Positions 41,045-53,626 of a stretch of DNA of 64,000 nucleotides are shown one piece after another. The DNA is from Flavobacteriaceae bacterium UBA2765 (GTDB lineage Bacteria > Bacteroidota > Bacteroidia > Flavobacteriales > Flavobacteriaceae). The first letter of the stretch is position 1, and each line of letters begins with the position of its first letter. The translations under genes were made by a program, and so were the position numbers. The stretch covers positions 39,766 to 103,765 of the forward strand of contig DEIV01000007.1 of NCBI GenBank assembly GCA_002352665.1, read 5' to 3'. The notes under the pieces are model-generated. The model searched no databases. It saw nothing but the letters and a program-made list of their open reading frames with translations, and was not told where the DNA came from.

Positions 41045-41059
41045 GTAATTAATTTTTTG

Positions 41060-41133
<74 letters not shown>

Positions 41134-41236
41134 ATTATGATTAGTTTTTGCTAATCATGAATGAAATTTTAATTTGTAACAAAGCTTATAATTTTCTTGA
41201 GAAAGTGAACTTTCAACGTATACCAATAGCTTTAGT

Positions 41237-41254
41237 TTGTCGTGATGGCAGAAT
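41237..41254 (-). repeat. Decayed copy of the tRNA-Pro 3' end (old att-like site)
   Basis: TTGTCGTGATGGCAGAAT vs TTGTCGGGGTGGCAGGAT, 15/18 identical. Confidence 0.5.
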
Positions 41255-41366
41255 ATTGTCAAACCACACTATATTTTTAATAATCAAAAAGTTACGTCTT
41301 AATACATTCACTAGGTAACTTATTTGATAAGAACTTTTGTTTTTTTTTTACCTTTTTAAAGGTGGG

Positions 41367-41374
41367 CAAATATA
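41367..41374 (-). promoter_or_regulatory. -7 promoter box directed at tRNA-Arg
   Basis: TATATTTG on the minus strand, followed by CCCACC. Confidence 0.7.
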
Positions 41375-41528
41375 CAATTTTTACTAAAAAACATTAATAA
41401 AATTTTAAGTTTTTATATATTAAATCTTTGCTTGAAGATATTCGAGAAATCCAAGAGAATAAAAGGACAACTTTTCTTGTTTAGATTCAGTTAATTTTGA
41501 TAATAACAAGACCCTTTGTCTCTATTTT

Positions 41529-41676
41529 TCAAGACATAGAATACTCTGATGACTCTGTCTCAGGATTATTTATTAACTGTTTTATCATTGGTGTTCCGCT
41601 AAAGTGTGTATTTTTGTTCATATCGAAATCTTGTGATGAAAATCAATATATAAATAGAGTGTGAAAGCCATCTATG
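41529..41676 (-). mobile_element. Remnant left end and first codons of an IS4-family (DUF4372-type) transposase
   Basis: Minus-strand ORF from 41621, MNKNTHFSGTPMIKQLINN..., resembles the recalled N-terminus of Bacteroidota IS4 transposases (MNKS.NFSGTPIIKQ.LNF). Stops after 30 codons. Candidate end CATAGATGGCTTTCACACTC at 41676. Confidence 0.5.
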
Positions 41677-41793
41677 GAAATCCCACTTTTAAAAAGTTTT
41701 ATCGAACACTAATGTATTTTTATAGTTATATTAAAAGTATGCAATGGTGTACTTATTGTTTTTGTTAGAAATTTTTAAAATCAAAACTTTTGA

Positions 41794-44700
41794 ATGGTTC
41801 AGTATAAAAGAATAGAAATATTAATTTGTATAACACTTACATTCTTTTGTCTTACTAAAGGTTTGGGACAAAATGAAACTGGCGAAAATTATAATGCTGA
41901 AAACGGTTTATCTTCTAATTGGGTTTCTTGTTTTCAATTAGACGATAACGGGTATCTTTGGTTAGGCACGCAAAATGGTCTTAATAGATTTGATGGAATA
42001 AATTTTAAAAAGTATTATAACAAGCCATTTGACAATAATAGTATTGCAAGTAATTGGGTACGTAATATAGTAAAGGATGAAACAGGTAATTTTTGGTTGG
42101 GAACCATTGGAGGTGGTTTGCAAAAATTTAATCCGTACAAACATACCTTTGACAAAAATTTTTTAATCGAAGGTGAACAACCAACCGTAGTTAAGAGAAT
42201 TGTTATATCTAACGATAAAATTTGGGTAGTTTCTGATAGAGGTTTGCTAATGGCTAAAAAACCTTATAAGAGTTTCAAGTATATATCAAAAAGTTTTTAT
42301 ATAAATATAACTAATCTAGGTAAAGAACATTTGATTTTGAGCAATAAGGATGGCCTTTTTTTATTAAATAAAAAGTCTAATCATATTCGTAGTATTAGCG
42401 AACAAAATCATCAGACGATTGCTGAAATCAATACAGATAATTTTTTTGTTTTAGAAAATCAATATATTTCAAAATATCAGATTAAAGATTCCTTAATTAA
42501 CAAATTAAGTAGTCATAAATTAAATCTTGATAATTCTAATTCAACCCTTTGGGGATCAATAAAGTTATTTTCTTCATCTTATGGAATATTAATCACATCA
42601 AAAGATGAAATTTTTAGATATGATGATACAACAAATAGTTTAATTCCCTTTTTTAAATATAGTAACAAATCTGATGACAATACAGTATTAAGCTACTATG
42701 AAACTAAAAAAGGAGATTTATGGATTGGCACAAAAAAAGGTGTATACCATCTTAGTAATCATAAAAAAACCTATGGAGATGCAGATAATGGTTGGCAAAA
42801 TGTAAAAGATGTAAAGGTTAGAGAAATTCAACTTGAAAACAATGTGCTTTGGTTAGCCAATGAAAAAGGACTGAAAAGTTATTACAAAAATAAAGAGCTT
42901 AAAACATACCTAAAGGGTAATATTACTGCGTTTAAAAAAGTAAATAACAATCTATATGCTGCAGGAAAAGATCAAAATGATCAAGCTAATTTTTGGCATA
43001 TTAACTTAAAAACAGGTCAAACTAAAAGTTTTGCTCTAAAAGACTTCAAGGCAGAAGGTAATATTTGGAAAATATTACCTGATAATGATAGAATTTTGAT
43101 TGCCGGACAATATAACTTTGGTTATTATAATTTAAAAGATGAAACTTTAAATTTTTTAAACAAAATTGGTAATCAAAAATTAAAATCGTTGGTTATTACC
43201 GATCTCTTAAAACATCATGATGAACTATGGATTGCAACACTTGATGGGCTTTTTATAACTAAAAACAATAGTTTTAAATCGGTAAAGCATTTAATAAGAA
43301 ATAAAAAAAATGGCTTAACCAATAATATTATTATGGATATACACAAAGATCAAAATGATAATATTTGGTTAGCAACTGAGGGAGGATTGCATCTATATAA
43401 TGAGAAAAATTCAACTTTTAAACACTGGGGAAGAAAAGATGGTCTTTTAGATGCTAAAGTACTAACTATTGAGTCTGACAATGAAGGCTCTCTTTGGTTA
43501 GGAACTAACTCATCAGGCCTCTTTAAATTTAATCCTTCAGATGAATCTTTTACCAATTTTAATAAAAAATTGGGACTAAGCTCTGATGAATTTTTAATGA
43601 GTGCTGGTTTTAGCCAAGACAATCAAATATTTTTAGGTACTGAAAACGAAATAGTAACTTTTGATGCCAGTACATTGCAACTTCCAAATAAAGATACGCT
43701 TAAGTTAAAAATAGAAACAATTCATGTTGATAAAGGTATTGATGATGAATTACTTAACCAAGAAACTCAAAATAAACTTGTGTTACCTTATAATTATGGT
43801 AATTTATCATTTCATTTTAATGCACCAAATTACTACAACCCAAAATCTACAACGTATTCGTATAAAGTAAATGGCTTATACGATTCTTGGGTTGATTTAG
43901 GGACATCAAATTCATTTTCGCTTGTCAATTTACCGCATGGTAACTATCAAATTCAAATAAAAGCTGAAAACCCGCTTTATACAACTTCAATACAATCATT
44001 TGCATTAACTATAAAGAGGGCTTTTTATAATACGTTTTGGGCTTGGATTCTTTATTCATCGACTCTTTTAAGTATACTTTTTTATTTTTGGAAACATTTT
44101 AAAAATAAATTAATCATCAAAAATAAATTAGAAAACCTAAAAGAGATCAATAGCTTAAAATCTAAAATGTATGCAGAAATATCTCACGAAATTAAAACAC
44201 CATTAACCCTAATAAAAGGAAATACTTCTTTACTTGCTAAAGAAGAAATAACTGAAGAACAAAAAAAAGCAATAGGCACTATTAAAAAAAGTTCAAAAGA
44301 AGTATTAAGTCTAGTAAATCAGATGTTAGATCTAGTCGCTATAGATGTAAAAAGATTTGAATTAAACTATGTTTCTAAAGATATTGTCATCTTCTTGAAA
44401 CAGTGTATCGCCTTATTTGAATCTAGAGCAAAAAACCAAAGAAAAGAACTTTTACTTAACAGCTCAACAGAAAGTTTAATTTCTAGTATTGATGTCCAAA
44501 ATTTAAAAAAAGTTATTTTCAATTTAATTACAAATGCTTTAAAATTTACGCCAACAAACGGAATTATAACCCTTGAATTGTTAGCTTCACCACCAAATAA
44601 TTTTATCATTAAAGTGAGTGATACCGGTAAAGGTATACAAGCGGAACATTTGCCAAGAATATTTGATAGATATTATAAAACTTTTGACTTAGAAAATAAT

Positions 44701-45669
44701 CTTGGATCTGGTATAGGTATGTCTTTAACAAAAGAGATTATCCAATTGATGGAAGGTGAAATAAAAGTTGAAAGTACTGTTAATCAAGGAACAACGTTTA
44801 CTATAACACTCCCAATTCAAAAAAGTAATGACAGTATTAACGATGAAAATAAGATAGAATTATTACCTTCTAACCCTTCATCTACCTTAAAAGAAGAATT
44901 TCAGTTAGTAGTAGTAGATGATAATGCCAGTTTGCTGGAATATTATAGTCAACTTTTAGACAATACTTACAATGTTAGCTACTTTCAGAATGGAAAAACA
45001 GCACTGCAATATGTTAAGAAAAATCATTGTGACTTCATTTTGAGTGATGCGATAATGCCCATAATGGATGGCTTTCAGCTTTGTAAAGAACTGAGAAAAG
45101 ATTGGACAACCTCTCACATACCTTTTATTATGGTCAGTGCTTTATCTAACTTAGAAAATAAAAATGAGGGATATAAAATAGGTGTTGATGCTTTTCTAGA
45201 AAAACCTTTTGAAGAGCAAGAATTATTAGCAGTAATTCATAACCTTTTAAACAAACAAAAAATAAGAGCCAGTTATTTTAAAAAGTACTTTAACGTTAAA
45301 AAAGAGGTCAATGCTTTATTAGCACCTAAAGATTTAGACTTTATTGATAAGCTACATAGCTTAGTATTCAATAAAGATAAAAATATTAATATTGAGATTC
45401 TTTCACAAGAACTTGGATTAAGTCGTAGTCAATTACACAGAAAAATTAAATCACTTACCGAAATGTCAACGACAGCCTATATTAACAATATAAGAATTGA
45501 AAAAGCAAAGCAATTACTTTTAAGTTCAAATTTAGACATAAACGAAATTGCATATCAAATAGGTTTTTCTGACGCCGGGTATTTCATAAAAACGTTTAAA
45601 AAACAGTTACATAGTACGCCTAAGAATTGGCGAGATACCTATAAAAAATCTGCTCCTGACAACAAATGA
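41794..45669 (+). CDS. Hybrid two-component system sensor/regulator (HTCS)
   Basis: Reg_prop propeller repeats (GYLWLGTQNGLNRFDG, NIWLATEGGL), Y_Y_Y domain, TM, HisKA SHEIKTPL, HATPase DTGKGI/GSGIG, REC SDAIMPIMDG and AraC HTH. Confidence 0.95.
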   Translation: MVQYKRIEILICITLTFFCLTKGLGQNETGENYNAENGLSSNWVSCFQLDDNGYLWLGTQNGLNRFDGINFKKYYNKPFDNNSIASNWVRNIVKDETGNFWLGTIGGGLQKFNPYKHTFDKNFLIEGEQPTVVKRIVISNDKIWVVSDRGLLMAKKPYKSFKYISKSFYINITNLGKEHLILSNKDGLFLLNKKSNHIRSISEQNHQTIAEINTDNFFVLENQYISKYQIKDSLINKLSSHKLNLDNSNSTLWGSIKLFSSSYGILITSKDEIFRYDDTTNSLIPFFKYSNKSDDNTVLSYYETKKGDLWIGTKKGVYHLSNHKKTYGDADNGWQNVKDVKVREIQLENNVLWLANEKGLKSYYKNKELKTYLKGNITAFKKVNNNLYAAGKDQNDQANFWHINLKTGQTKSFALKDFKAEGNIWKILPDNDRILIAGQYNFGYYNLKDETLNFLNKIGNQKLKSLVITDLLKHHDELWIATLDGLFITKNNSFKSVKHLIRNKKNGLTNNIIMDIHKDQNDNIWLATEGGLHLYNEKNSTFKHWGRKDGLLDAKVLTIESDNEGSLWLGTNSSGLFKFNPSDESFTNFNKKLGLSSDEFLMSAGFSQDNQIFLGTENEIVTFDASTLQLPNKDTLKLKIETIHVDKGIDDELLNQETQNKLVLPYNYGNLSFHFNAPNYYNPKSTTYSYKVNGLYDSWVDLGTSNSFSLVNLPHGNYQIQIKAENPLYTTSIQSFALTIKRAFYNTFWAWILYSSTLLSILFYFWKHFKNKLIIKNKLENLKEINSLKSKMYAEISHEIKTPLTLIKGNTSLLAKEEITEEQKKAIGTIKKSSKEVLSLVNQMLDLVAIDVKRFELNYVSKDIVIFLKQCIALFESRAKNQRKELLLNSSTESLISSIDVQNLKKVIFNLITNALKFTPTNGIITLELLASPPNNFIIKVSDTGKGIQAEHLPRIFDRYYKTFDLENNLGSGIGMSLTKEIIQLMEGEIKVESTVNQGTTFTITLPIQKSNDSINDENKIELLPSNPSSTLKEEFQLVVVDDNASLLEYYSQLLDNTYNVSYFQNGKTALQYVKKNHCDFILSDAIMPIMDGFQLCKELRKDWTTSHIPFIMVSALSNLENKNEGYKIGVDAFLEKPFEEQELLAVIHNLLNKQKIRASYFKKYFNVKKEVNALLAPKDLDFIDKLHSLVFNKDKNINIEILSQELGLSRSQLHRKIKSLTEMSTTAYINNIRIEKAKQLLLSSNLDINEIAYQIGFSDAGYFIKTFKKQLHSTPKNWRDTYKKSAPDNK

Positions 45670-45732
45670 AACAATAGTCCCATCATTTGACACATTGGTC
45701 CAATTTGTAATTTCATACTTCATCTAGTTTTG
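45667..45732 (+). promoter_or_regulatory. AraC-type tandem direct repeat plus -7 box
   Basis: TGAAACAATAGTCCCA (45667) and TGACACATTGGTCCAA (45688): 21-bp period, 12/16 identical; then TAGTTTTG (45725-45732). Confidence 0.6.
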
Positions 45733-45898
45733 TCCTCTAAAGAATTTATATAAAAATTTTTATATGATGAGATAGGCTTCATTTATTGGTTTATCAATAT
45801 TAATAAATGAAGCGAGTCTATAAAAGAACTAACCACTCTTTTGAGTAAGTATATGGTATACTTATTAGGAATAATAATATTAATAAAAAAAATGAAAA

Positions 45899-47053
45899 AT
45901 GAAAAAACTAAAAACAATTTATTCAATTTTACTAGTCTCTATTTTAATTTTATCCTCTTGTAAAAAGGATGATGATTCAACACCTCAATCCCCTCCAGAT
46001 TATGCCAGTGAGTTTGTAGGTCTTTGGAAATTTGACAATGATGAAGATTATGCCGACGCCATATTTTTTGGACCTAGTGGAGAGGCTTTTCTAGTCTTTT
46101 ATGGTGATTTAAATACTATACACCTTATCCCCGCAGATTTTAATACTTATGAATTTGAAAACAATCAAGTTAACTATTTAAAATTCGGAGATAATCCCAT
46201 CCCTTATGAGGGTGGAAACACTTTTGCCATTCCAGGGAATAGTATGACTAAAGTTGATGGCGTCAATAAATTAGATGATTTAATTGAAACGCTTAATAAT
46301 GTCAAAGACGCAATTAGTGTAGATGTTACTACTTTTTTAACAGGTGATACATATAATAACCTTGATGGTTTTGGTGATCATTTATTGGTCCCTAATCCAT
46401 CTGCAGAAGAAGGAAGGTATATCCGCTTTCAAAAATCTAATTTAAATTTTGTAGAAGAAGTTACCGGTGTTGGTCAAACGACTACGTCAATTGGTGTTTA
46501 TGACACCAATCCATTTGAGCTACTCTCTGTTTTAGAGAATAACAATAAATTTCGTACATATCAGCCAAGTAACCCTGCTTTTCATCATCCAGCTGTAGAT
46601 GACATCCCTTTTTCACCAAACCGATATAGTTGTCATGCAGTGACCAACGAAAGTGGTAGAGACCTAATTAGTTATAATCGTAATACAAAATCATTTAATT
46701 ATCATGATGTAAACATCATAAATGAACAACAAGGGGTGTCGTCATTTGCTTTTTATAAATTACCATTCAAATTAAATATTCGTGGAATGGATTATGTAGA
46801 AGATGAAAACAAATTATTGATAACCGATACTTATAACATACACATTTTTAATGTTGGTTTTAATAGTGATAGAGATGATGTTTCGGTTTTTGAACATGAG
46901 CGTTCTATAAGTATCGTGCCATTACAATTAACCAATGAATCTTTTTTTGGAAGAATTCAAGGACTTTATTACGATTCAAATGAAACTTTATATATGGTAA
47001 TAAACAACGGAAGTGTTATCAAATTAGTAAAAATCGTATTCGAATACTTTTAA
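45899..47053 (+). CDS. Hypothetical surface lipoprotein
   Basis: Lipobox LSSC followed by KKDDD, a Bacteroidota lipoprotein-export-signal-like acidic stretch. Confidence 0.8.
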   Translation: MKKLKTIYSILLVSILILSSCKKDDDSTPQSPPDYASEFVGLWKFDNDEDYADAIFFGPSGEAFLVFYGDLNTIHLIPADFNTYEFENNQVNYLKFGDNPIPYEGGNTFAIPGNSMTKVDGVNKLDDLIETLNNVKDAISVDVTTFLTGDTYNNLDGFGDHLLVPNPSAEEGRYIRFQKSNLNFVEEVTGVGQTTTSIGVYDTNPFELLSVLENNNKFRTYQPSNPAFHHPAVDDIPFSPNRYSCHAVTNESGRDLISYNRNTKSFNYHDVNIINEQQGVSSFAFYKLPFKLNIRGMDYVEDENKLLITDTYNIHIFNVGFNSDRDDVSVFEHERSISIVPLQLTNESFFGRIQGLYYDSNETLYMVINNGSVIKLVKIVFEYF

Positions 47054-47145
47054 TACATAAAATGAGCGATAACAAATAAGTTGAAACCGAAATGATTAAA
47101 ATGGGGAATCCCATCTAAACATTGAAAAACAACAAATATAAACAG

Positions 47146-48162
47146 ATGAAAAAAATAATTAAAAACATCCTACTCATCTTTATAGCTCTTTTTACAATGA
47201 GCTGTAGTGAAGATAACAATAATATTCCAGAGCAACCCACCACATCAGCATCACCTGATATATATGTTGTAGGAAAAATAAAAAACATCCCTATGCTTTG
47301 GAAAAATCGTACTGCAAGTGAACTGACGGGCGGAACCTATACAGCAGAAGCTCATTCTGTAACAGTTGCTAATAATGATGTTTACGTTGCGGGTTTTGAA
47401 AAAATAAACCTTACTAAAAAAGCTACACTGTGGAAAAATGGAAATGCTATTGATTTATCAAGTAACGCATTTACATCTTATGCCCGTTCTGTAACAGTAG
47501 TGAATAGCGATGTGTATGTTGCTGGCTTCGAGTATGAAACAAGTGGAAGTACTTTTGTAGCAAAAGTATGGAAAAATGGTGTTTCAAGCAATTTGACCAA
47601 TGGTAACCATGATGCCTTAGCAGAATCAATTAGAGTAGTAAATAATGATGTTTATGTGGCAGGTTATGAGTCAATAGGATTTGTTGATGTAGCTAAACTC
47701 TGGAAAAATGGTAGTGCAACTAATTTAACAGATGGCACCCATGAAGCTAGGGCCTACTCAGTAGCAGTAGATAATAATGATGTCTATGTGGTAGGTTATG
47801 AATTTATTGATGGTTATCATGTTGCCAAAATCTGGAAAAACGGTGTTGGAAGTAATTTAACCGATCTTAGTGTGGATGCTAAAGCCTATTCTGTAGCGGT
47901 AGAAAATAATAATGTATATGTTGCAGGTTATAAAGGTTTGGTTGCGACACTATGGATAAATGGTGAGGCTAATTCGCTATCAACAGGAAACGTACTTGGT
48001 AATGTAGCCAGATCAGTAACCTTAAATAATAGTGATGTCTATGTTGTAGGATATGTGTATGAAGAAGGTAAAACAATAGCTAAAATTTGGAAAAATGGAC
48101 AATCAAACAATTTAACAGAAAGTACTGAGGATACTGTTGCAAATTCAATTTATCTCCATTAA
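47146..48162 (+). CDS. Beta-propeller-type repeat lipoprotein
   Basis: Lipobox TMSC-SEDNN; about six ~47-aa repeats DVYV(A/V)G.E....A..WKNG...L; ATG 47146 preferred over the TTG at 47122. Confidence 0.8.
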   Translation: MKKIIKNILLIFIALFTMSCSEDNNNIPEQPTTSASPDIYVVGKIKNIPMLWKNRTASELTGGTYTAEAHSVTVANNDVYVAGFEKINLTKKATLWKNGNAIDLSSNAFTSYARSVTVVNSDVYVAGFEYETSGSTFVAKVWKNGVSSNLTNGNHDALAESIRVVNNDVYVAGYESIGFVDVAKLWKNGSATNLTDGTHEARAYSVAVDNNDVYVVGYEFIDGYHVAKIWKNGVGSNLTDLSVDAKAYSVAVENNNVYVAGYKGLVATLWINGEANSLSTGNVLGNVARSVTLNNSDVYVVGYVYEEGKTIAKIWKNGQSNNLTESTEDTVANSIYLH

Positions 48163-48192
48163 AAAGGAAATCAAATTATTAAAATATAATTA

Positions 48193-48237
48193 ATGAAAAA
48201 AATAATTAGAAACACGCTGCTCATTTTTATAAAATAA
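48193..48237 (+). pseudogene. 14-codon stub duplicating the start of the 47146 gene
   Basis: MKKIIRNTLLIFIK* vs MKKIIKNILLIFIA. Confidence 0.55.
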
Positions 48238-48242
48238 AAACT

Positions 48243-49034
48243 ATGAAAAAAATAATTTATTTACTAATAATTCCACTGCTATTTTTACAATGTAGCAGTG
48301 ATGATGACAATGGTCCAAAAGCTTATTTTCCTAAAAAAATTTCTATTGAGCCCATCACCAATATTTTATCGAACAGTAAAGAATTAATTCTTACTTACAA
48401 TAACAATAATTTAATTACTACAATTGAATTTGTTTATTTTGGTACTGTTAATGTAAATTCATTTAAGGAAATACAAATAGCATATACTACAAATAATGAC
48501 ATCAAAGAAATAAAAAGTATAAGTCTTGATAATCTAGAATCTATCACTACTATTAATCATGATGATTTTGGTATAATCTCACAAATAAATTTTCAGTCAG
48601 AAGATATTGGTTTAAAAATAAATGCAAATTACAACGCTCAAAGCAACATTTATACTCTAAACGGTGCATCAGCAATTTTTCCTATTACATTTAATTTTGA
48701 TAATAATGACGTAATACATGCAATAGGTGGTTCGGCAATAAACAACCGAAATTTTCATTATAACACACAAGAAACAGGTCTCTTTAAAGACTTAAGGCAA
48801 CAACCTGAATTAATCATGTGGTCAGAAATATTCACTTTTGGAAGCTTAAATGTAAATCTAAATTATTTGGCACCTTATAAATTAGAGAAAATAACATCCC
48901 AATTTCTAAATCATCGTCTTTACGATAATTTTGAAAAGGATGCTTCCGAAAATCTGATAAAATTTACTGATAAAGTACTTGGAGGAGGAGGTGAAAACCA
49001 ATACTCCATTTCTTACCAATATAGAAATTTATAA
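48243..49034 (+). CDS. Hypothetical surface lipoprotein
   Basis: Lipobox FLQC-SSDDDN. Confidence 0.8.
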   Translation: MKKIIYLLIIPLLFLQCSSDDDNGPKAYFPKKISIEPITNILSNSKELILTYNNNNLITTIEFVYFGTVNVNSFKEIQIAYTTNNDIKEIKSISLDNLESITTINHDDFGIISQINFQSEDIGLKINANYNAQSNIYTLNGASAIFPITFNFDNNDVIHAIGGSAINNRNFHYNTQETGLFKDLRQQPELIMWSEIFTFGSLNVNLNYLAPYKLEKITSQFLNHRLYDNFEKDASENLIKFTDKVLGGGGENQYSISYQYRNL

Positions 49035-49066
49035 AAAATAAATATAACAATTAAAATTTATAAAAA

Positions 49067-49681
49067 ATGAAAAAAATAATCATAAGTATAGTACTTATAA
49101 TATCACCAATAATAATGGTTGCACAACAACAAAACACACCTTTTATAGAAGTATTAGGTACGGTTAATTATAAGGCAAAAGCAGAAAAATATATTGCAAG
49201 CATTGAAATGTCAAAATATCTAATAAATAATGTAATTAATAAAGAAGATATAACCTTTGCAGATATAAAAGAAAACTATTTTAAAAAATTAAAAAATGCA
49301 GGCTTTGATAGACAAAGATTTAAAGAAATTTCAATGAAATATTTATCATATAGTCAAGATAAAAGTGTAATGTTAATTTTTGAAACTGAATCAAAAGAAG
49401 AGTTTGAGAATGTATTAAGTATCAAAAGTGCTGGGGTAAATATTATGTATAAAGATGTAATTTTTAAAATAACGAATCAGCAATTAGAAAATTTATCATA
49501 TAATGCCATAGAAAAGGCCAAGAAAAAAGCAGAAAAGATTGCTTTAAAAAATGGTAGAAAAATTGGTAAAATAATTATGATATCAGATCATAACTCTGCT
49601 ACAATAAAAGAAGCTCTTTATTATTTAAATGCAGATGGTGAAAAGCTATATCTAGTTACTGTTAGGTTTGAACTTTTATAA
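49067..49681 (+). CDS. SIMPL (DUF541) domain protein
   Basis: Signal peptide; IEVLG...KA; AIEKAKKKAEKIA...GRKIGKIIMISD; terminal VTVRFEL. Confidence 0.75.
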   Translation: MKKIIISIVLIISPIIMVAQQQNTPFIEVLGTVNYKAKAEKYIASIEMSKYLINNVINKEDITFADIKENYFKKLKNAGFDRQRFKEISMKYLSYSQDKSVMLIFETESKEEFENVLSIKSAGVNIMYKDVIFKITNQQLENLSYNAIEKAKKKAEKIALKNGRKIGKIIMISDHNSATIKEALYYLNADGEKLYLVTVRFELL

Positions 49682-49897
49682 ATTAAAAACATTGAAAACA
49701 ATTATTAAATAAGATAATTTATTAGATATAAAACATATTGTCAAAATGTTGAAAATTGATTTGCCTAATCGCTTTGCAAGGAAGAATTTTGATAATACCA
49801 TTCAAGTTGCTCAAAGAAAATTGACTTATCAACGAACCTATATTGAAGTTAACAAGAACAAATAAAAAAGCCTTCTACTATTGTGAAAAGCTTTCTC

Positions 49898-49916
49898 TTG
49901 TCGGGGTGGCAGGATT
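49898..49916 (-). repeat. att-like copy of the tRNA-Pro 3' end
   Basis: TTGTCGGGGTGGCAGGATT, identical to 53549-53567 (19 bp). Confidence 0.95.
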
Positions 49917-50076
49917 ACTCGTTTCACTCATGATCCTATAGATGGTTTAGTGCTCATTAAAAACTAAAATGCTACTGCATTTTTATTATTATTATTTTCA
50001 TTTCGGTTATGAAGCAAGCTTCAACCTCATGAAAATAAAAAAACCCATAAATCAAATGATTTATAGGTTTTTAATG
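49917..50076. other. 160-bp structured, non-coding unit between two att copies
   Basis: Hairpins at 49994-50036 (core TGAAGC-aa-GCTTCA) and 50041-50070 (core ATAAATCA-aa-TGATTTAT, followed by a U-tract on the minus strand). Confidence 0.7.
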
Positions 50077-50093
50077 GTCGGGGTGGCAGGATT
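50077..50093 (-). repeat. att-like copy of the tRNA-Pro 3' end
   Basis: GTCGGGGTGGCAGGATT, identical to 53551-53567 (17 bp). Confidence 0.95.
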
Positions 50094-50223
50094 AATTAAA
50101 ATTTCACAACCCCTTATATTTCAATGTATTAAACACTTTTAACTATATGCTGTTCACCGAATTGCACACTAAAGTTAAAAAAGAACTATTTAAAAACAAA
50201 TTTTATTCGTCTTTAAGGTTCGG

Positions 50224-50231
50224 CAAATATA
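50224..50231 (-). promoter_or_regulatory. Outward-facing -7 promoter box at the island end
   Basis: TATATTTG on the minus strand, 130 bp from the att copy at 50093. Confidence 0.55.
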
Positions 50232-50355
50232 ATATGCTATTAATTGTTACACAAGATAATTTATACTTTAATTTTAGTTTATAATCTAAGTACGGAATTT
50301 TATCAAAATAAGAGATTCATGGCTATCCAAAAACCTTGAAGTTCTTAGAATTAAA

Positions 50356-51717
50356 TTATTTTGTCACTAATAGTTTTCCTGTTAGTATTTCATCTTTATA
50401 TTTTACACGAACAATATAAATACCTTCATTCCAGCCTGCTGTTTGTATTTTTATGCTTTTACTTTTCAGTTTGTCTTTTTTTAATTTTTGAACATTCATG
50501 AGGTCGTAAATTTCTAAATCCCATTCTCCAATTTTATCAAAAGTTGTTTCGGCTGATGACGATTTCTGATCCGTTTCTTCCGGGTTACCTTGTTCAATAG
50601 AAACTGTGGTTTCACCGTAGGTGGGGTTAGGGTAAAAACTTAGATAATAATTTTGCATTATCTGGTAAGACTCGCTATGCCAATTCCCTTCTCCACATGG
50701 GTTATGAGCCCTGACGTAAACAGTTTCATAGCCGTAACTGTAAGGAGGTACAAATACCACAGAAACCATATCTTTATCTTCCGTTTCAAAATGACTCCAA
50801 CCAGAACTGTAATTCCAGTCATAATCATCAATACCCATAACGGTTTCATCTACAGCATAAGTTTTGGTTGTAACCCACAGAACATTTTGTTCCCCAGCTA
50901 CAAAAAAATCCTGTCCACTATAATTTGAATTTTGAATATCCAATTCATTAGGTGAAGGTGGGCCTGCCCACAAGTTTTTTTGAGTAGAATAGCCAGATAC
51001 TGTTGCCTTTATCCATCCGATTCCTGAACCACTTGCAGAAAAGTTACAAGGATTCGAGCCTTGAGATGAGTTCATAGTAATATTACTACTTTTGCTCCAA
51101 GTAATAGTTGATCCACTAGGAAGATTATTCATAGTAAAAGGAGATCCTGCTGAACAAATTATATCAGGTCCAGATATTGAAGGTGGTGTGAAATTTCTTT
51201 TATAATATTTTAAAACAGAGGAATTATATGGAGTATAGGTAGGATTATGCCTCATTAAAGGCCATTGCCCCCATTTTGAATCATATTTTCCTGAAACGAC
51301 TGATTCAATTGCTGAATGATCATCACTTGCATAGGATATTTTTTCCGCCTCCGTTGAGGAGATTTCAATATAACTACCATCCTGCCAATATTTATCATCA
51401 CCAGGTGTATTCATCCAATAATTTGTACAACCTGTACATTCTGTCAAATACCATGCATACGCATGGCAATTATATGTTGTTGAAGCATCGTTTATTATTG
51501 TTGCATTAGGAAATGCCGCTGCCGCTTGAGCGTTAGTGGCAATAATCTGGCTTTGCGACATTTCATTAAATATTAATACAGTTACTGGTGTACCATTTGG
51601 AGTGTACACAGTTGTTGATTGTGCAAAAGAGCTGTTTAAAGGAAATAATAAAGCATAGAGACTTACTATTACAGATAAGTTTGTTGGTAATTTAAGGAAT
51701 TTAAAATTGGTTTGCAT
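50356..51717 (-). CDS. T9SS type A cargo protein with a putative papain-like Cys/His domain and an Ig-like linker
   Basis: Signal peptide (NSSFA-Q); YNC84HAYAW, DH134SAI and SKWG..PLMRH; C-terminal T9SS signal FYPNPT...GWNEGIYIVRV...TGKLLV. Confidence 0.85.
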   Translation of the reverse strand: MQTNFKFLKLPTNLSVIVSLYALLFPLNSSFAQSTTVYTPNGTPVTVLIFNEMSQSQIIATNAQAAAAFPNATIINDASTTYNCHAYAWYLTECTGCTNYWMNTPGDDKYWQDGSYIEISSTEAEKISYASDDHSAIESVVSGKYDSKWGQWPLMRHNPTYTPYNSSVLKYYKRNFTPPSISGPDIICSAGSPFTMNNLPSGSTITWSKSSNITMNSSQGSNPCNFSASGSGIGWIKATVSGYSTQKNLWAGPPSPNELDIQNSNYSGQDFFVAGEQNVLWVTTKTYAVDETVMGIDDYDWNYSSGWSHFETEDKDMVSVVFVPPYSYGYETVYVRAHNPCGEGNWHSESYQIMQNYYLSFYPNPTYGETTVSIEQGNPEETDQKSSSAETTFDKIGEWDLEIYDLMNVQKLKKDKLKSKSIKIQTAGWNEGIYIVRVKYKDEILTGKLLVTK

Positions 51718-52438
51718 AATCTAATATTATATTTAAGGTTTCTATATTATTGTTTAGTTCAACATCATTTATAAAGATGTTCATAAAGTTATTAGTAGCT
51801 ATTTCTTCTAAAAAAGGGGCATAGTTTTCAAGAACCATTACTCTGGCCATGATTAGTGCCTCTACTTTTAGATTAAAAATACTATATGGGTCTCCGATTC
51901 TCTTAAACTCAATATATTTATTAATTGCTTCATTTAAAAGTTCCCTTCTTTCGGCGGGAGTCAATTGTTCTATAAAAATATTTTGGGCTTGTACCATACT
52001 CATGTAAATGAAAAACAAGCTGTAATCTACTATATCAGTATTGTTAGGAGGACAAGAAGGGTTCATTAGTTTAAAACGGTTCAACATTAAGCGACCTGCC
52101 TCGTTTCTTGATTCAAGTGTAATGAATCCATTAAAATTATTCATTTGACTTTCAGTACCTTTTTGAATACTTTCAAATGCAAGCATACTACTTAACAAAG
52201 GGTAGTCCAAGCACGTTTCAACCAAGCCGTAAGTACTGATACTTGTAAGTTTATCTTCAGGTAACTGAAGGATGTCAATCATTTCTTGTCCACTAGTCAA
52301 TTCTTCCCATTCGGGCATCCCTGGCCTTACAGGAAATATATATTGGTCGGATGGCTTAGGAGAGAAAGTCAAACAAATTTCCTCATCATGCTTATTACAA
52401 GCTATCAATATGACGAATAATATATATATATATTTCAT
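51701..52438 (-). CDS. Uncharacterised lipoprotein, paralog of 52435-53154
   Basis: Lipobox LIAC; YIFPVRPGMPEW, QLPEDKLTSISTYGLVETCLDYPLL and FNG; overlaps the T9SS gene by 17 nt. Confidence 0.85.
   Translation of the reverse strand: MKYIYILFVILIACNKHDEEICLTFSPKPSDQYIFPVRPGMPEWEELTSGQEMIDILQLPEDKLTSISTYGLVETCLDYPLLSSMLAFESIQKGTESQMNNFNGFITLESRNEAGRLMLNRFKLMNPSCPPNNTDIVDYSLFFIYMSMVQAQNIFIEQLTPAERRELLNEAINKYIEFKRIGDPYSIFNLKVEALIMARVMVLENYAPFLEEIATNNFMNIFINDVELNNNIETLNIILDYANQF
52420..52433. repeat. (AT)7 simple sequence repeat in the first codons of the lipoprotein gene
   Basis: ATATATATATATAT within MKYIYIL. Confidence 0.8.
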
Positions 52439-53154
52439 TCTATAAACATTCGTCCTTTTTCCATTATATCGTCAATGATAGCCAAATCAACAAGCAGACC
52501 TTTTTCAATAAAAATACTTTTAGCAAAATTAGCTTTGTCACTCTCTAGGTTTTGCGAGGTATCAGACTCCAAAGATCTCCCCATTACCCATATCGAAATA
52601 GAGGTGCCATGTGTGCTAAAAATAGAAATATGTTTTTGCTTAGAATTATACTTATCAAAACACAATTTTACCAAGTCTTTTTTCTCAGCCACTATTAAAG
52701 TAGATAAAATAACCTTTTGGGCAAGAAAGGTTTCAATATACGAAAACTCAAATGTAAAGTTTCCTTTTTGTTCATCTGTCCATTCAGAATTATAATTATT
52801 AGGAGACATTTTCGAGTAAACTTTTATTAATTCGGTTCCTGAATCTTTTCTACTTATTAATTCTTGAATACCATTGAATTTTTTTGTCAAAGCATTAAAA
52901 CCTGTCTGCAAATCGTCATATGCGAATAGGGTGCTTAAAAGCGGATAATTTAAACATGTTGTTACTAAATCTCCAGTCGACATTGATTTTAACATTTCTT
53001 CAGGTATTTGACAAGCCAAATACATTTCTTCAGAATTATTAAATTGCTTCCATTCTTCATCTCCAGGTCTTATTGGAAAATTATAAGGTTGGCTATACAT
53101 GTTTATAGCGAACACACAAAAGAGTACAAATAGATAATTGATTTTTTCTTTCAT
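52435..53154 (-). CDS. Uncharacterised exported protein, paralog of 51701-52438
   Basis: SPI-type signal (AINMYS-Q); YNFPIRPGDEEW, QIPEEMLKSMSTGDLVTTCLNYPLL and FNG; ATGA overlap with the next gene. Confidence 0.85.
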   Translation of the reverse strand: MKEKINYLFVLFCVFAINMYSQPYNFPIRPGDEEWKQFNNSEEMYLACQIPEEMLKSMSTGDLVTTCLNYPLLSTLFAYDDLQTGFNALTKKFNGIQELISRKDSGTELIKVYSKMSPNNYNSEWTDEQKGNFTFEFSYIETFLAQKVILSTLIVAEKKDLVKLCFDKYNSKQKHISIFSTHGTSISIWVMGRSLESDTSQNLESDKANFAKSIFIEKGLLVDLAIIDDIMEKGRMFIE

Positions 53155-53300
53155 TGTTTTTAATATTTTAAAAGTTAGATTTTTAGTTTATATTTTTATA
53201 AAATATTTCCCTCTAGACAACTAATTGTTCCTAATGAGTTTCTCAACAACTTTGATTTATCTAATACAAGTTTTAGGATTCTATATTTAGAAGATAGTAA

Positions 53301-53308
53301 CAAAGTTA
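53301..53308 (-). promoter_or_regulatory. -7 promoter box for the three-gene cassette
   Basis: TAACTTTG on the minus strand, about 147 nt upstream of the 53154 start. Confidence 0.55.
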
Positions 53309-53551
53309 CTAAATTGCGAATTATAGTTTTATGACTTTTATCATAATTCAAAATCAATTGAGTGTATGAGATAAACGGTTTGGTAAACCAGTAATTTTAT
53401 TATGGTTTTCCCGTAAAAAAGATAGTTCGTTAAATAGAATTAACTAATCATAAAAAATTCTCTATATAAGCGTGTTCGTAAAACTAAGGGGGAAAAGCAA
53501 GAGGGTAACACGCTACGCGATGTTACTAATCTATAATTTACTGTTTTTTTG

Positions 53552-53626
53552 TCGGGGTGGCAGGATTCGAACCTGCGGCCTCCACGTCCCAAACGTGGCG
53601 CGATAACCGGGCTACGCTACACCCCG
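53552..53626 (-). tRNA. tRNA-Pro(TGG)
   Basis: CGGGGTGTAGCGTAGCCCGGTTATCGCG-CCACG-TTTGGGA-CGTGG..GGTTCGAATCC..CACCCCGA. Confidence 0.97.

Follow-up and report, generated by a model that had tools for sequence, protein, structure and literature searches.

Results

Three overlapping genes encode a type IX secretion cargo and two related partners

We analyzed a window of 64,000 nucleotides (the whole stretch of DNA considered here) from contig DEIV01000007.1 of the Flavobacteriaceae bacterium UBA2765 (assembly GCA_002352665.1, positions 39,766 to 103,765 of the forward strand). Three consecutive genes on its minus strand, here called g1, g2 and g3, encode two related envelope proteins (the partners) and a protein that combines a conserved Cys/His domain (for brevity, the enzyme domain) with the signals of a type IX secretion system (T9SS) cargo. 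An initial annotation of this sequence had singled out the trio as a candidate system comprising a secreted papain-like effector and two dedicated partners. Its features are as follows:

52435-53154, minus strand: g1, type-A partner of 239 amino acids with a signal peptidase I (SPI)-type signal, from an all-alpha family that has no Pfam model
51701-52438, minus strand: g2, type-B partner of 245 amino acids, a lipoprotein with the lipobox ILIAC, Cys14 and then NKHDEE
50356-51717, minus strand: g3, T9SS cargo of 453 amino acids with a signal peptide, a Cys/His domain, a PKD-like region and a type-A C-terminal sorting domain (CTD)
51178-51621, minus strand: g3 residues 33-180, the DUF7689-type Cys/His domain
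51466-51468, minus strand: codon for C84 of g3
51316-51318, minus strand: codon for H134 of g3
50683-51177, minus strand: g3 residues ~181-345, PKD-like/Ig-like linker region, with a PKD_6 match at 283-345
50365-50634, minus strand: g3 residues 362-451, the T9SS type-A CTD

The genes are translationally coupled, as the initial annotation had noted, and both overlaps can be read directly on the sequence: g1 and g2 share 4 nucleotides (ATGA; the junction agaATGAaa contains the g1 stop and the g2 start), and g2 and g3 share 17 nucleotides at the junction ATGCAAACCAATTTTAA, which contains the g3 start and the g2 stop. The proposed paralogy of g1 and g2 was borne out by BLASTP, which aligned them with 29% identity over 204 residues (E 2e-30). 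Mature g1 begins just before a conserved Y-x-F-P-I-R-P-G-x-x-E-W motif (Y-N-F-P-I-R-P-G in g1 itself), and the signal of g2 is short and ends in the lipobox. Scans of the three proteins against PHROGs and PADLOC gave no matches, and a sigma-70 promoter scan returned counts not above those of shuffled sequences, Bacteroidota promoters being outside that model's coverage.

The sorting domain of g3 scored above the cut-offs of both PF18962 (Por_Secre_tail; 31.2 bits versus 27) and TIGR04183 (27.5 versus 23), a signal peptide could be read from the sequence, and the genome encodes SprA (2497 bits) together with 49 CTD-bearing proteins, g3 included. A tail above cut-off, a signal peptide and the presence of the machinery identify g3, at the level of sequence, as a type-A cargo of the T9SS. 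The Ig-like linker described at the outset was likewise recovered, as the PKD_6 match ahead of the tail.

The partner is encoded next to the enzyme domain or fused to it

The enzyme domain is widespread. A word-based search with g3 residues 30-180 returned 56 clusters from Bacteroidota, Thermoanaerobaculia and Micromonospora, and a HMMER search with residues 33-180, exhaustive over 1.84 billion representatives, returned 1980 clusters (at 50% identity) with E ≤1e-3 and 1060 with E ≤1e-10, many of the matches being from gut and oral Bacteroidales. A one-genome-per-species scan yielded at least 526 enzyme relatives, of which we kept 80 loci for neighborhood analysis, running hidden Markov models (HMMs) of the partner and of the enzyme domain on the six-frame open reading frames (ORFs) of these loci. 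The cassette was found in Bacteroidota, Fibrobacterota, Ignavibacteriota, Acidobacteriota, Chloroflexota and Actinomycetota. At the DNA level the nearest trio, in Maribacter orientalis and a TARA contig, was 70% identical over positions 53169-51201 of the window; the Maribacter similarity covered exactly g1, g2 and the enzyme domain, with the PKD and CTD part of g3 lying outside it. One contig labeled Wujia chipingensis (Lachnospiraceae; L054) has partner and enzyme genes near-identical to those of a Muribaculaceae contig (L052); this probably reflects mis-binning of the contig and not a copy in a Firmicute.

At 76 of the 80 enzyme loci, one or two partner genes immediately preceded the enzyme gene on its own strand, or the partner formed an N-terminal fusion with the enzyme. 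Two partner genes followed by the enzyme gene on one strand, as in the window, accounted for about 35 loci and a single partner gene followed by the enzyme for about 25, while in about 12 the partner was fused N-terminally to the enzyme in one ORF, in some cases with a T9SS tail. The fused loci include Kribbella, Micromonospora, Acidobacteriota, Chloroflexota and some Bacteroidales. Two to four of the 80 loci had an enzyme without a partner, and two of those were at a contig edge. Among 198 enzyme-family proteins, the partner HMM matched the N-terminal 200–250 residues of about 45, with a fusion linker of ~10 to 57 residues. No further neighbor gene was generally conserved across the 80 loci; a TonB-dependent-receptor group occurred in 10 of them.

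Co-occurrence was examined in an evenly spread sample of 401 Bacteroidota genomes, with the caveat that just six candidates per genome were scored in both searches. The enzyme profile matched four genomes, and an independent partner profile matched the same four, where the genes are adjacent. Fusion, adjacency and co-occurrence combined make physical cooperation of partner and enzyme very likely, and the view of the trio as one functional unit, first formed from a single locus, is upheld by the 76 of 80 loci and the four shared genomes.

A survey of neighborhoods had been set beforehand as a test of this linkage. We assembled partner-seeded loci from a metagenome scan and from contigs encoding independent partner matches (for the locus scan a subset of the partner alignment was used, as the full alignment was too divergent). 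The enzyme adjoined the partner or was fused to it at 12 of the 20 informative loci, two of which were tandem duplicate trios, and four further loci were cut by a contig end; the partner family is therefore not one found mostly without the enzyme. Two complete tandem trios, each in the order A, B, enzyme, were seen within one genome at L043:1475-7820 and again at L137:1933-6936.

At some loci a Cys-rich lipoprotein of ~120 amino acids is encoded between partner A and the enzyme (L009:4638-4991, L013:1356-1721 and L024:1392-1769), and one of the same type precedes a partner-less enzyme at L023:4550-4921. We considered whether it might be a homolog of the Parabacteroides-type enzyme N-domain or of the helical partners, and BLASTP was negative.

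Soluble and lipoprotein partners diverged long ago

The partner family has no Pfam or NCBIfam match and no name in any source searched, and a profile search of the PDB with the partner found no relative, in keeping with its description at the outset as an unrecognized family. In the predicted model the partner domain is all-alpha.

The different routing of g1 and g2, by an SPI signal and a lipobox respectively, recurs across the two-partner loci: the enzyme-proximal partner is a lipoprotein by lipobox pattern in 31 of 38, most of the other seven having an atypical Cys box, and the distal partner has an SPI-type signal in 35 of 38. Soluble and lipoprotein routing is thus a conserved feature and not an accident of this genome. 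In a maximum-likelihood tree of 106 partner domains, all of the distal partners (type A) grouped with the single and fused partners, and the proximal lipoproteins (type B) formed two or three separate deep groups; the A/B label changed just three times on the tree, and g1 and g2 each grouped with their Maribacter counterpart. This grouping indicates that type A is common to all of these systems and that type B was added long ago, in Bacteroidota alone.

The enzyme domain has a predicted Cys/His arrangement resembling that of papain-like hydrolases

Across 259 distinct near-full-length domains, C84 and K148 were 100% conserved, H85, H134, S147 and H157 were 99.6% conserved, and S135, W149 and G150 were 98–99% conserved, so that the motifs on which the initial annotation had relied (C84, H134 and SKWG) all fall at 98–100%. 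Because 80 of the 259 sequences had been retrieved with the Y-N-C-H block as the pattern, the conservation of that block among them is partly built in; this bias affects neither the other positions nor the 150 HMMER matches.

AlphaFold2 predicted the structure of residues 33-180 from a 56-row alignment with a predicted local distance difference test score (pLDDT) of 96.5 and a predicted template modeling score (pTM) of 0.89. Helix 52-59 of the model starts at model residue C52, which corresponds to C84, placing the Cys at the helix N terminus; H134 opens strand 102-106 of the antiparallel sheet that follows, and SKWG is on the next strand. Searched against the PDB with Foldseek, the model gave weak matches of which the first twelve were MepS/Spr, followed by Trichomonas NlpC, CwlO and PlyPy (NlpC/P60 and CHAP proteins) and the C39 domain of PCAT1, with cores of 70–80 residues superposing at 3–4 Å. 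A fold search of BFVD produced similar weak matches. The Cys at a helix N terminus, the invariant His on a strand and the NlpC/P60 proteins at the head of the fold matches make a papain-like enzyme plausible, and we consider the g3 domain likely to be a distant, uncharacterized branch with the papain-like plan.

By profile, the domain is not a member of PF00877: hmmscan of g3 gave no NLPC_P60 match. Nor did a PDB sequence search with g3 or a profile search with the enzyme domain give any match. Its membership of DUF7689 (PF24738), a Pfam family without an assigned function, is borderline. The isolated g3 domain scored 22.6 bits, exactly at the gathering cut-off; whole g3 scored 14 bits, and the genome search gave 23.1 bits summed. 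The family matched 46 of 56 relatives, some of them above the cut-off (L094 at 26 bits and P0185 at 25.2 bits). A literature search for DUF7689 found no mention of it, and one combining T9SS, NlpC and immunity gave no relevant paper.

The Cys/His domain also occurs at the N terminus of a T9SS protein of 804 amino acids containing a gingipain-like Peptidase_C25 domain (P0170), and other enzyme relatives bear beta-helix, Kre9/KNH or TPR parts.

A natural fusion suggests a prodomain that can act in trans

We modeled a natural fusion of partner and enzyme (P0037, 410 amino acids) from a mixed alignment, obtaining a pLDDT of 90.6 and a pTM of 0.83. The model has an all-alpha partner domain at residues 48-251, with the conserved N-terminal motif in an extended segment ahead of it, and then a linker in which pLDDT falls below 50 at residues 261-264, followed by the enzyme domain. 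The high pTM implies defined packing between the two domains of the predicted structure. Foldseek with the whole fused model matched generic helical proteins alone.

Our best reading, to which we give a probability of about 0.5, is that g3 is a papain-like hydrolase and that g1 and g2 are prodomain-like chaperones or inhibitors acting in trans; physical binding, inhibition or chaperoning, catalysis and substrate are what we infer in the steps that follow. The g3 protein would be exported by Sec and then by the T9SS. Its N-terminal domain of ~145 residues would be a DUF7689-type hydrolase of papain or NlpC/P60-like architecture, with C84 as the nucleophile at the helix N terminus, H134 as the general base on the following sheet, and S147-K148-W149-G150 in place of the papain N-S-W-G. 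The likeliest substrates, as suggested by the fold neighbors, would be proteins or peptidoglycan, cleaved at a peptide or amide bond. As anciently diverged members of one all-alpha family, g1 (soluble and periplasmic) and g2 (a lipoprotein) would bind the enzyme domain and serve as a prodomain in trans, either aiding its folding or holding it latent while it crosses the periplasm, with the lipoprotein paralog playing the same role at a membrane. When the T9SS exports the enzyme the partners would stay behind, because they lack a T9SS tail.

The prodomain reading comes from comparing lineages: in monoderms and in several further lineages, one polypeptide carries the type-A partner as its N-terminal domain ahead of the enzyme, and in monoderms the partner is secreted in this form; the separate partners of Bacteroidota have no T9SS tail. 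The partners had been proposed to be inhibitors, immunity proteins or chaperones. A detached prodomain preserves the chaperone, or an inhibitor that maintains latency, whereas immunity is argued against because the partner is the N-terminal domain of the enzyme in many lineages.

Several results weigh against the reading of a papain-like enzyme with a detached prodomain. No Foldseek match to the PDB was significant (E ≥0.4, TM scores of 0.41–0.47), and hhalign gave a probability of 0.1% when 262 family domains were compared with 16 canonical NlpC/P60 domains, so that the papain-like identity proposed for g3 is favored by the modeled Cys/His arrangement and the identity of the top folds but not by the strength of the fold matches or by profile comparison. 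With ~210 residues, the partner exceeds the enzyme domain in size, an unusual proportion for a prodomain. In addition, about eight of the 20 informative partner-seeded loci had no enzyme, and tblastn detected no enzyme remnants in them. Two such loci encode other T9SS cargo: at L135:2771-7503 an A and B pair is followed by a 163-amino-acid lipoprotein and a Peptidase_S8 protein with a T9SS tail, and at L091:3875-8043 a 418-amino-acid partner-domain protein is followed by an 811-amino-acid T9SS-tailed protein of no recognizable catalytic family. Because of these enzyme-less loci, the partner family must be described as accompanying the enzyme mostly but not solely, and it is not strictly dedicated to it.

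The helical partners might instead be working subunits of a holoenzyme, needed for substrate recognition, activation or anchoring, with the lipoprotein form tethering the enzyme at the cell surface. NlpI for MepS and EnvC for amidases are precedents for adaptors and activators of this kind. Domain fusion classically marks subunits with a joint function, the model of the fusion is compact (pTM 0.83), and the partner family also adjoins other T9SS cargos; moreover, the acidic residues after the g2 lipobox Cys resemble, in our reading of the sequence, the surface-lipoprotein export signals described for Bacteroidota. The sole fold matches of the partner, too, are helical scaffold or adaptor proteins, but these very weak matches, to 14-3-3 and TPR-like proteins, were not significant (E >0.05, TM <0.3). 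Harder to accommodate are the g1-type partners, which have no T9SS tail and are expected in Bacteroidota to remain periplasmic while the enzyme leaves. We regard a holoenzyme as a real but unlikely alternative. It is very unlikely, in our judgment, that the Cys/His domain is no hydrolase at all but a binding or metal-holding module whose partners are unrelated co-transcribed proteins. Such a module would fit the lack of a significant match to any solved enzyme and the negative profile comparison with NlpC/P60, and the adjacent C84 and H85 together with H134 and H157 could in principle bind metal. However, the invariant Cys at the helix N terminus, the invariant His on the sheet and SKWG follow the papain plan, all of the best fold matches are papain-like enzymes, and the near-obligate linkage to the partner would be left unexplained.

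A toxin–immunity system would explain other features of the locus. Here g3 would be an antibacterial effector released by the T9SS, such as a peptidoglycan amidase, and g1 and g2, in the periplasm and anchored in a membrane, would confer immunity on the producing cell and its kin. Consistent with this idea, the trio lies in an accessory island, the enzyme being absent from 24 congeners and present in ~1% of the sampled genomes of the phylum; the partners, like Tai/Tsi immunity proteins, are directed to the periplasm or a membrane; trios are duplicated in tandem in some genomes (L043 and L137); and peptidoglycan endopeptidases head the fold matches. The fusions and the gene order weaken it, because partner and enzyme form one secreted polypeptide in many lineages, which is not expected of an immunity protein, and because the partner genes come before the enzyme gene. 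Moreover, arrays of orphan partner genes were not observed, and neither were polymorphic-toxin delivery domains; the A and B partners are not hypervariable but ancient, and have diversified together with the enzyme. We therefore think a toxin–immunity system quite unlikely.

Comparison with known systems

A secreted hydrolase with a dedicated prodomain or inhibitor is a known kind of system. What is new here is the enzyme family, which sits at the threshold of a domain of unknown function, the unrecorded partner family, and the presence of two anciently diverged and differently anchored partners.

The NlpC/P60 and CHAP hydrolases (RipA, CwlO and PcsB) and the MepS–NlpI pair resemble the trio in two respects: the Cys of a small Cys-His domain stands at a helix N terminus, and a helical partner is either N-terminally fused or a lipoprotein. 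RipA, CwlO and PcsB are auto-inhibited by their helical N-terminal part. In contrast, the best fold matches of the g3 domain, MepS and CwlO, reach TM scores of just 0.41–0.47 with no PF00877 profile homology, the residues conserved in the g3 family (YNCH, DHS, SKWG and H157) differ from the Cys-His-His of NlpC/P60, and the partner fold has no significant match to TPR or coiled-coil proteins, unlike the helpers in the NlpC/P60 systems.

In the Tannerella KLIKK/potempin, staphopain–staphostatin and Bacteroides C10/Bfi systems, as in the trio, a secreted hydrolase is co-transcribed with a small partner retained in the envelope; systems of the KLIKK/potempin type share with the trio a hydrolase secreted by the T9SS, and one of the trio partners is a lipoprotein. 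The initial annotation had drawn this comparison, and it stands as an analogy but not as a relationship. Staphostatins and potempins are beta-barrels, whereas the trio partners are predicted to be all-alpha and would thus not be their relatives. The trio partners also comprise ~210 residues, precede the enzyme gene and are two paralogs, not one, and the g3 enzyme is not an M12, S8 or C10 peptidase, unlike those of the KLIKK and C10 systems.

Papain zymogens (cathepsin propeptides, SpeB and the pro-region of protein-glutaminase) resemble the fusions in their order of helical N-terminal pro-part, flexible linker and Cys-His domain, and the g3 SKWG echoes the papain NSWG. The trio differs in having a duplicated pro-part that exceeds the enzyme in size and is often encoded by a gene of its own, and no sequence match or significant fold match connects the two.

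The enzyme domain is common; its family includes no protein with an established activity or a solved structure, and the partner family is outside Pfam. The pattern of fusion and splitting leads to the hypothesis of a prodomain in trans that exists as two differently anchored copies, which bears on how T9SS cargo enzymes stay harmless and export-competent in the periplasm. A bolder and quite improbable extension is that the partner family represents a general, unrecognized class of proteins that act in trans on T9SS cargo, as prodomains or as holding chaperones. If so, its soluble and lipoprotein members would keep different hydrolases folded but latent until export by the T9SS, with the DUF7689 Cys/His enzyme, a subtilisin and others as the clients so far, and the domain would act in cis in bacteria without a T9SS.

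The trio is accessory DNA beside a tRNA-Pro gene

The trio lies next to a tRNA gene, the 3′ end of which is repeated on its far side:

53551-53626, minus strand: tRNA-Pro (tgg), whose 3′ 17 nucleotides (53551-53567) are the repeated att-like core
50077-50093, plus strand: first exact 17-nucleotide copy of the tRNA-Pro 3′ end, which marks the far edge of the 3.46-kb trio segment
49900-49916, plus strand: second exact 17-nucleotide copy, 177 bp further on, bounding a non-coding mini-segment

The 17-mer GTCGGGGTGGCAGGATT that forms the tRNA-Pro 3′ end has three exact occurrences, at 53551, 50077 and 49900, and copies of this kind were matched in 0 of 100 shuffles. The distance from the tRNA end to the first copy is 3457 bp, and g1, g2 and g3 are its sole real coding content, which agrees with the earlier description of the trio as the whole cargo of a ~3.5-kb segment between exact tRNA-Pro 3′-end repeats. 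A tRNA-Arg gene lies at 41059-41133, and the 12.4-kb interval from it to tRNA-Pro holds a hybrid two-component regulator, three lipoproteins, a SIMPL protein and the trio; no integrase was found anywhere between the two tRNA genes.

When all candidates were scored, none of the 24 other species of the genus had the enzyme; the 28 sampled genomes of the family likewise lacked it. One congener (G223; locus L112, G223:C104:85400-92200) retains the frame of tRNA-Arg, tRNA-Pro and tRNA-Ser genes around an interval of 5.9 kb that has a single copy of the 17-mer and unrelated content, namely lipoproteins and a 632-amino-acid protein. The interval from tRNA-Arg to tRNA-Pro (41059-53626) is a replacement hotspot. 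Given the absence of the enzyme from the congeners and family genomes and the different interval in this relative, the trio is accessory DNA in a tRNA-flanked variable spot. Our best explanation takes g1, g2 and g3 to be a single horizontally acquired operon. As to the marks of an island, we found the tRNA 3′-end direct repeat and the absence from relatives, and no integrase inside the element.

Elsewhere, a tRNA gene was near the cassette at just three of 60 loci, and the link to a tRNA is therefore local to this genome. The notion of a trio in its own tRNA island consequently holds for this accessory copy between tRNA-derived repeats, but not for the cassette in general, which is widespread, old and usually not near a tRNA.

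The 160-bp piece between the two exact copies of the tRNA-Pro 3′ end (49917-50076) is non-coding and is either a scar or a miniature element; within it, at 50039-50072 on the minus strand, a 15-pair hairpin precedes a T-run. The variable interval that houses the trio, bounded by tRNA-Arg and tRNA-Pro, also contains, at 47122-48162, a lipoprotein gene made up of five to six 132-nucleotide repeats (W-K-N-G ... N-D-V-Y-V-A-G-Y) and giving no Pfam match. Two other lipoproteins encoded beside this gene have acidic stretches after the lipobox Cys.

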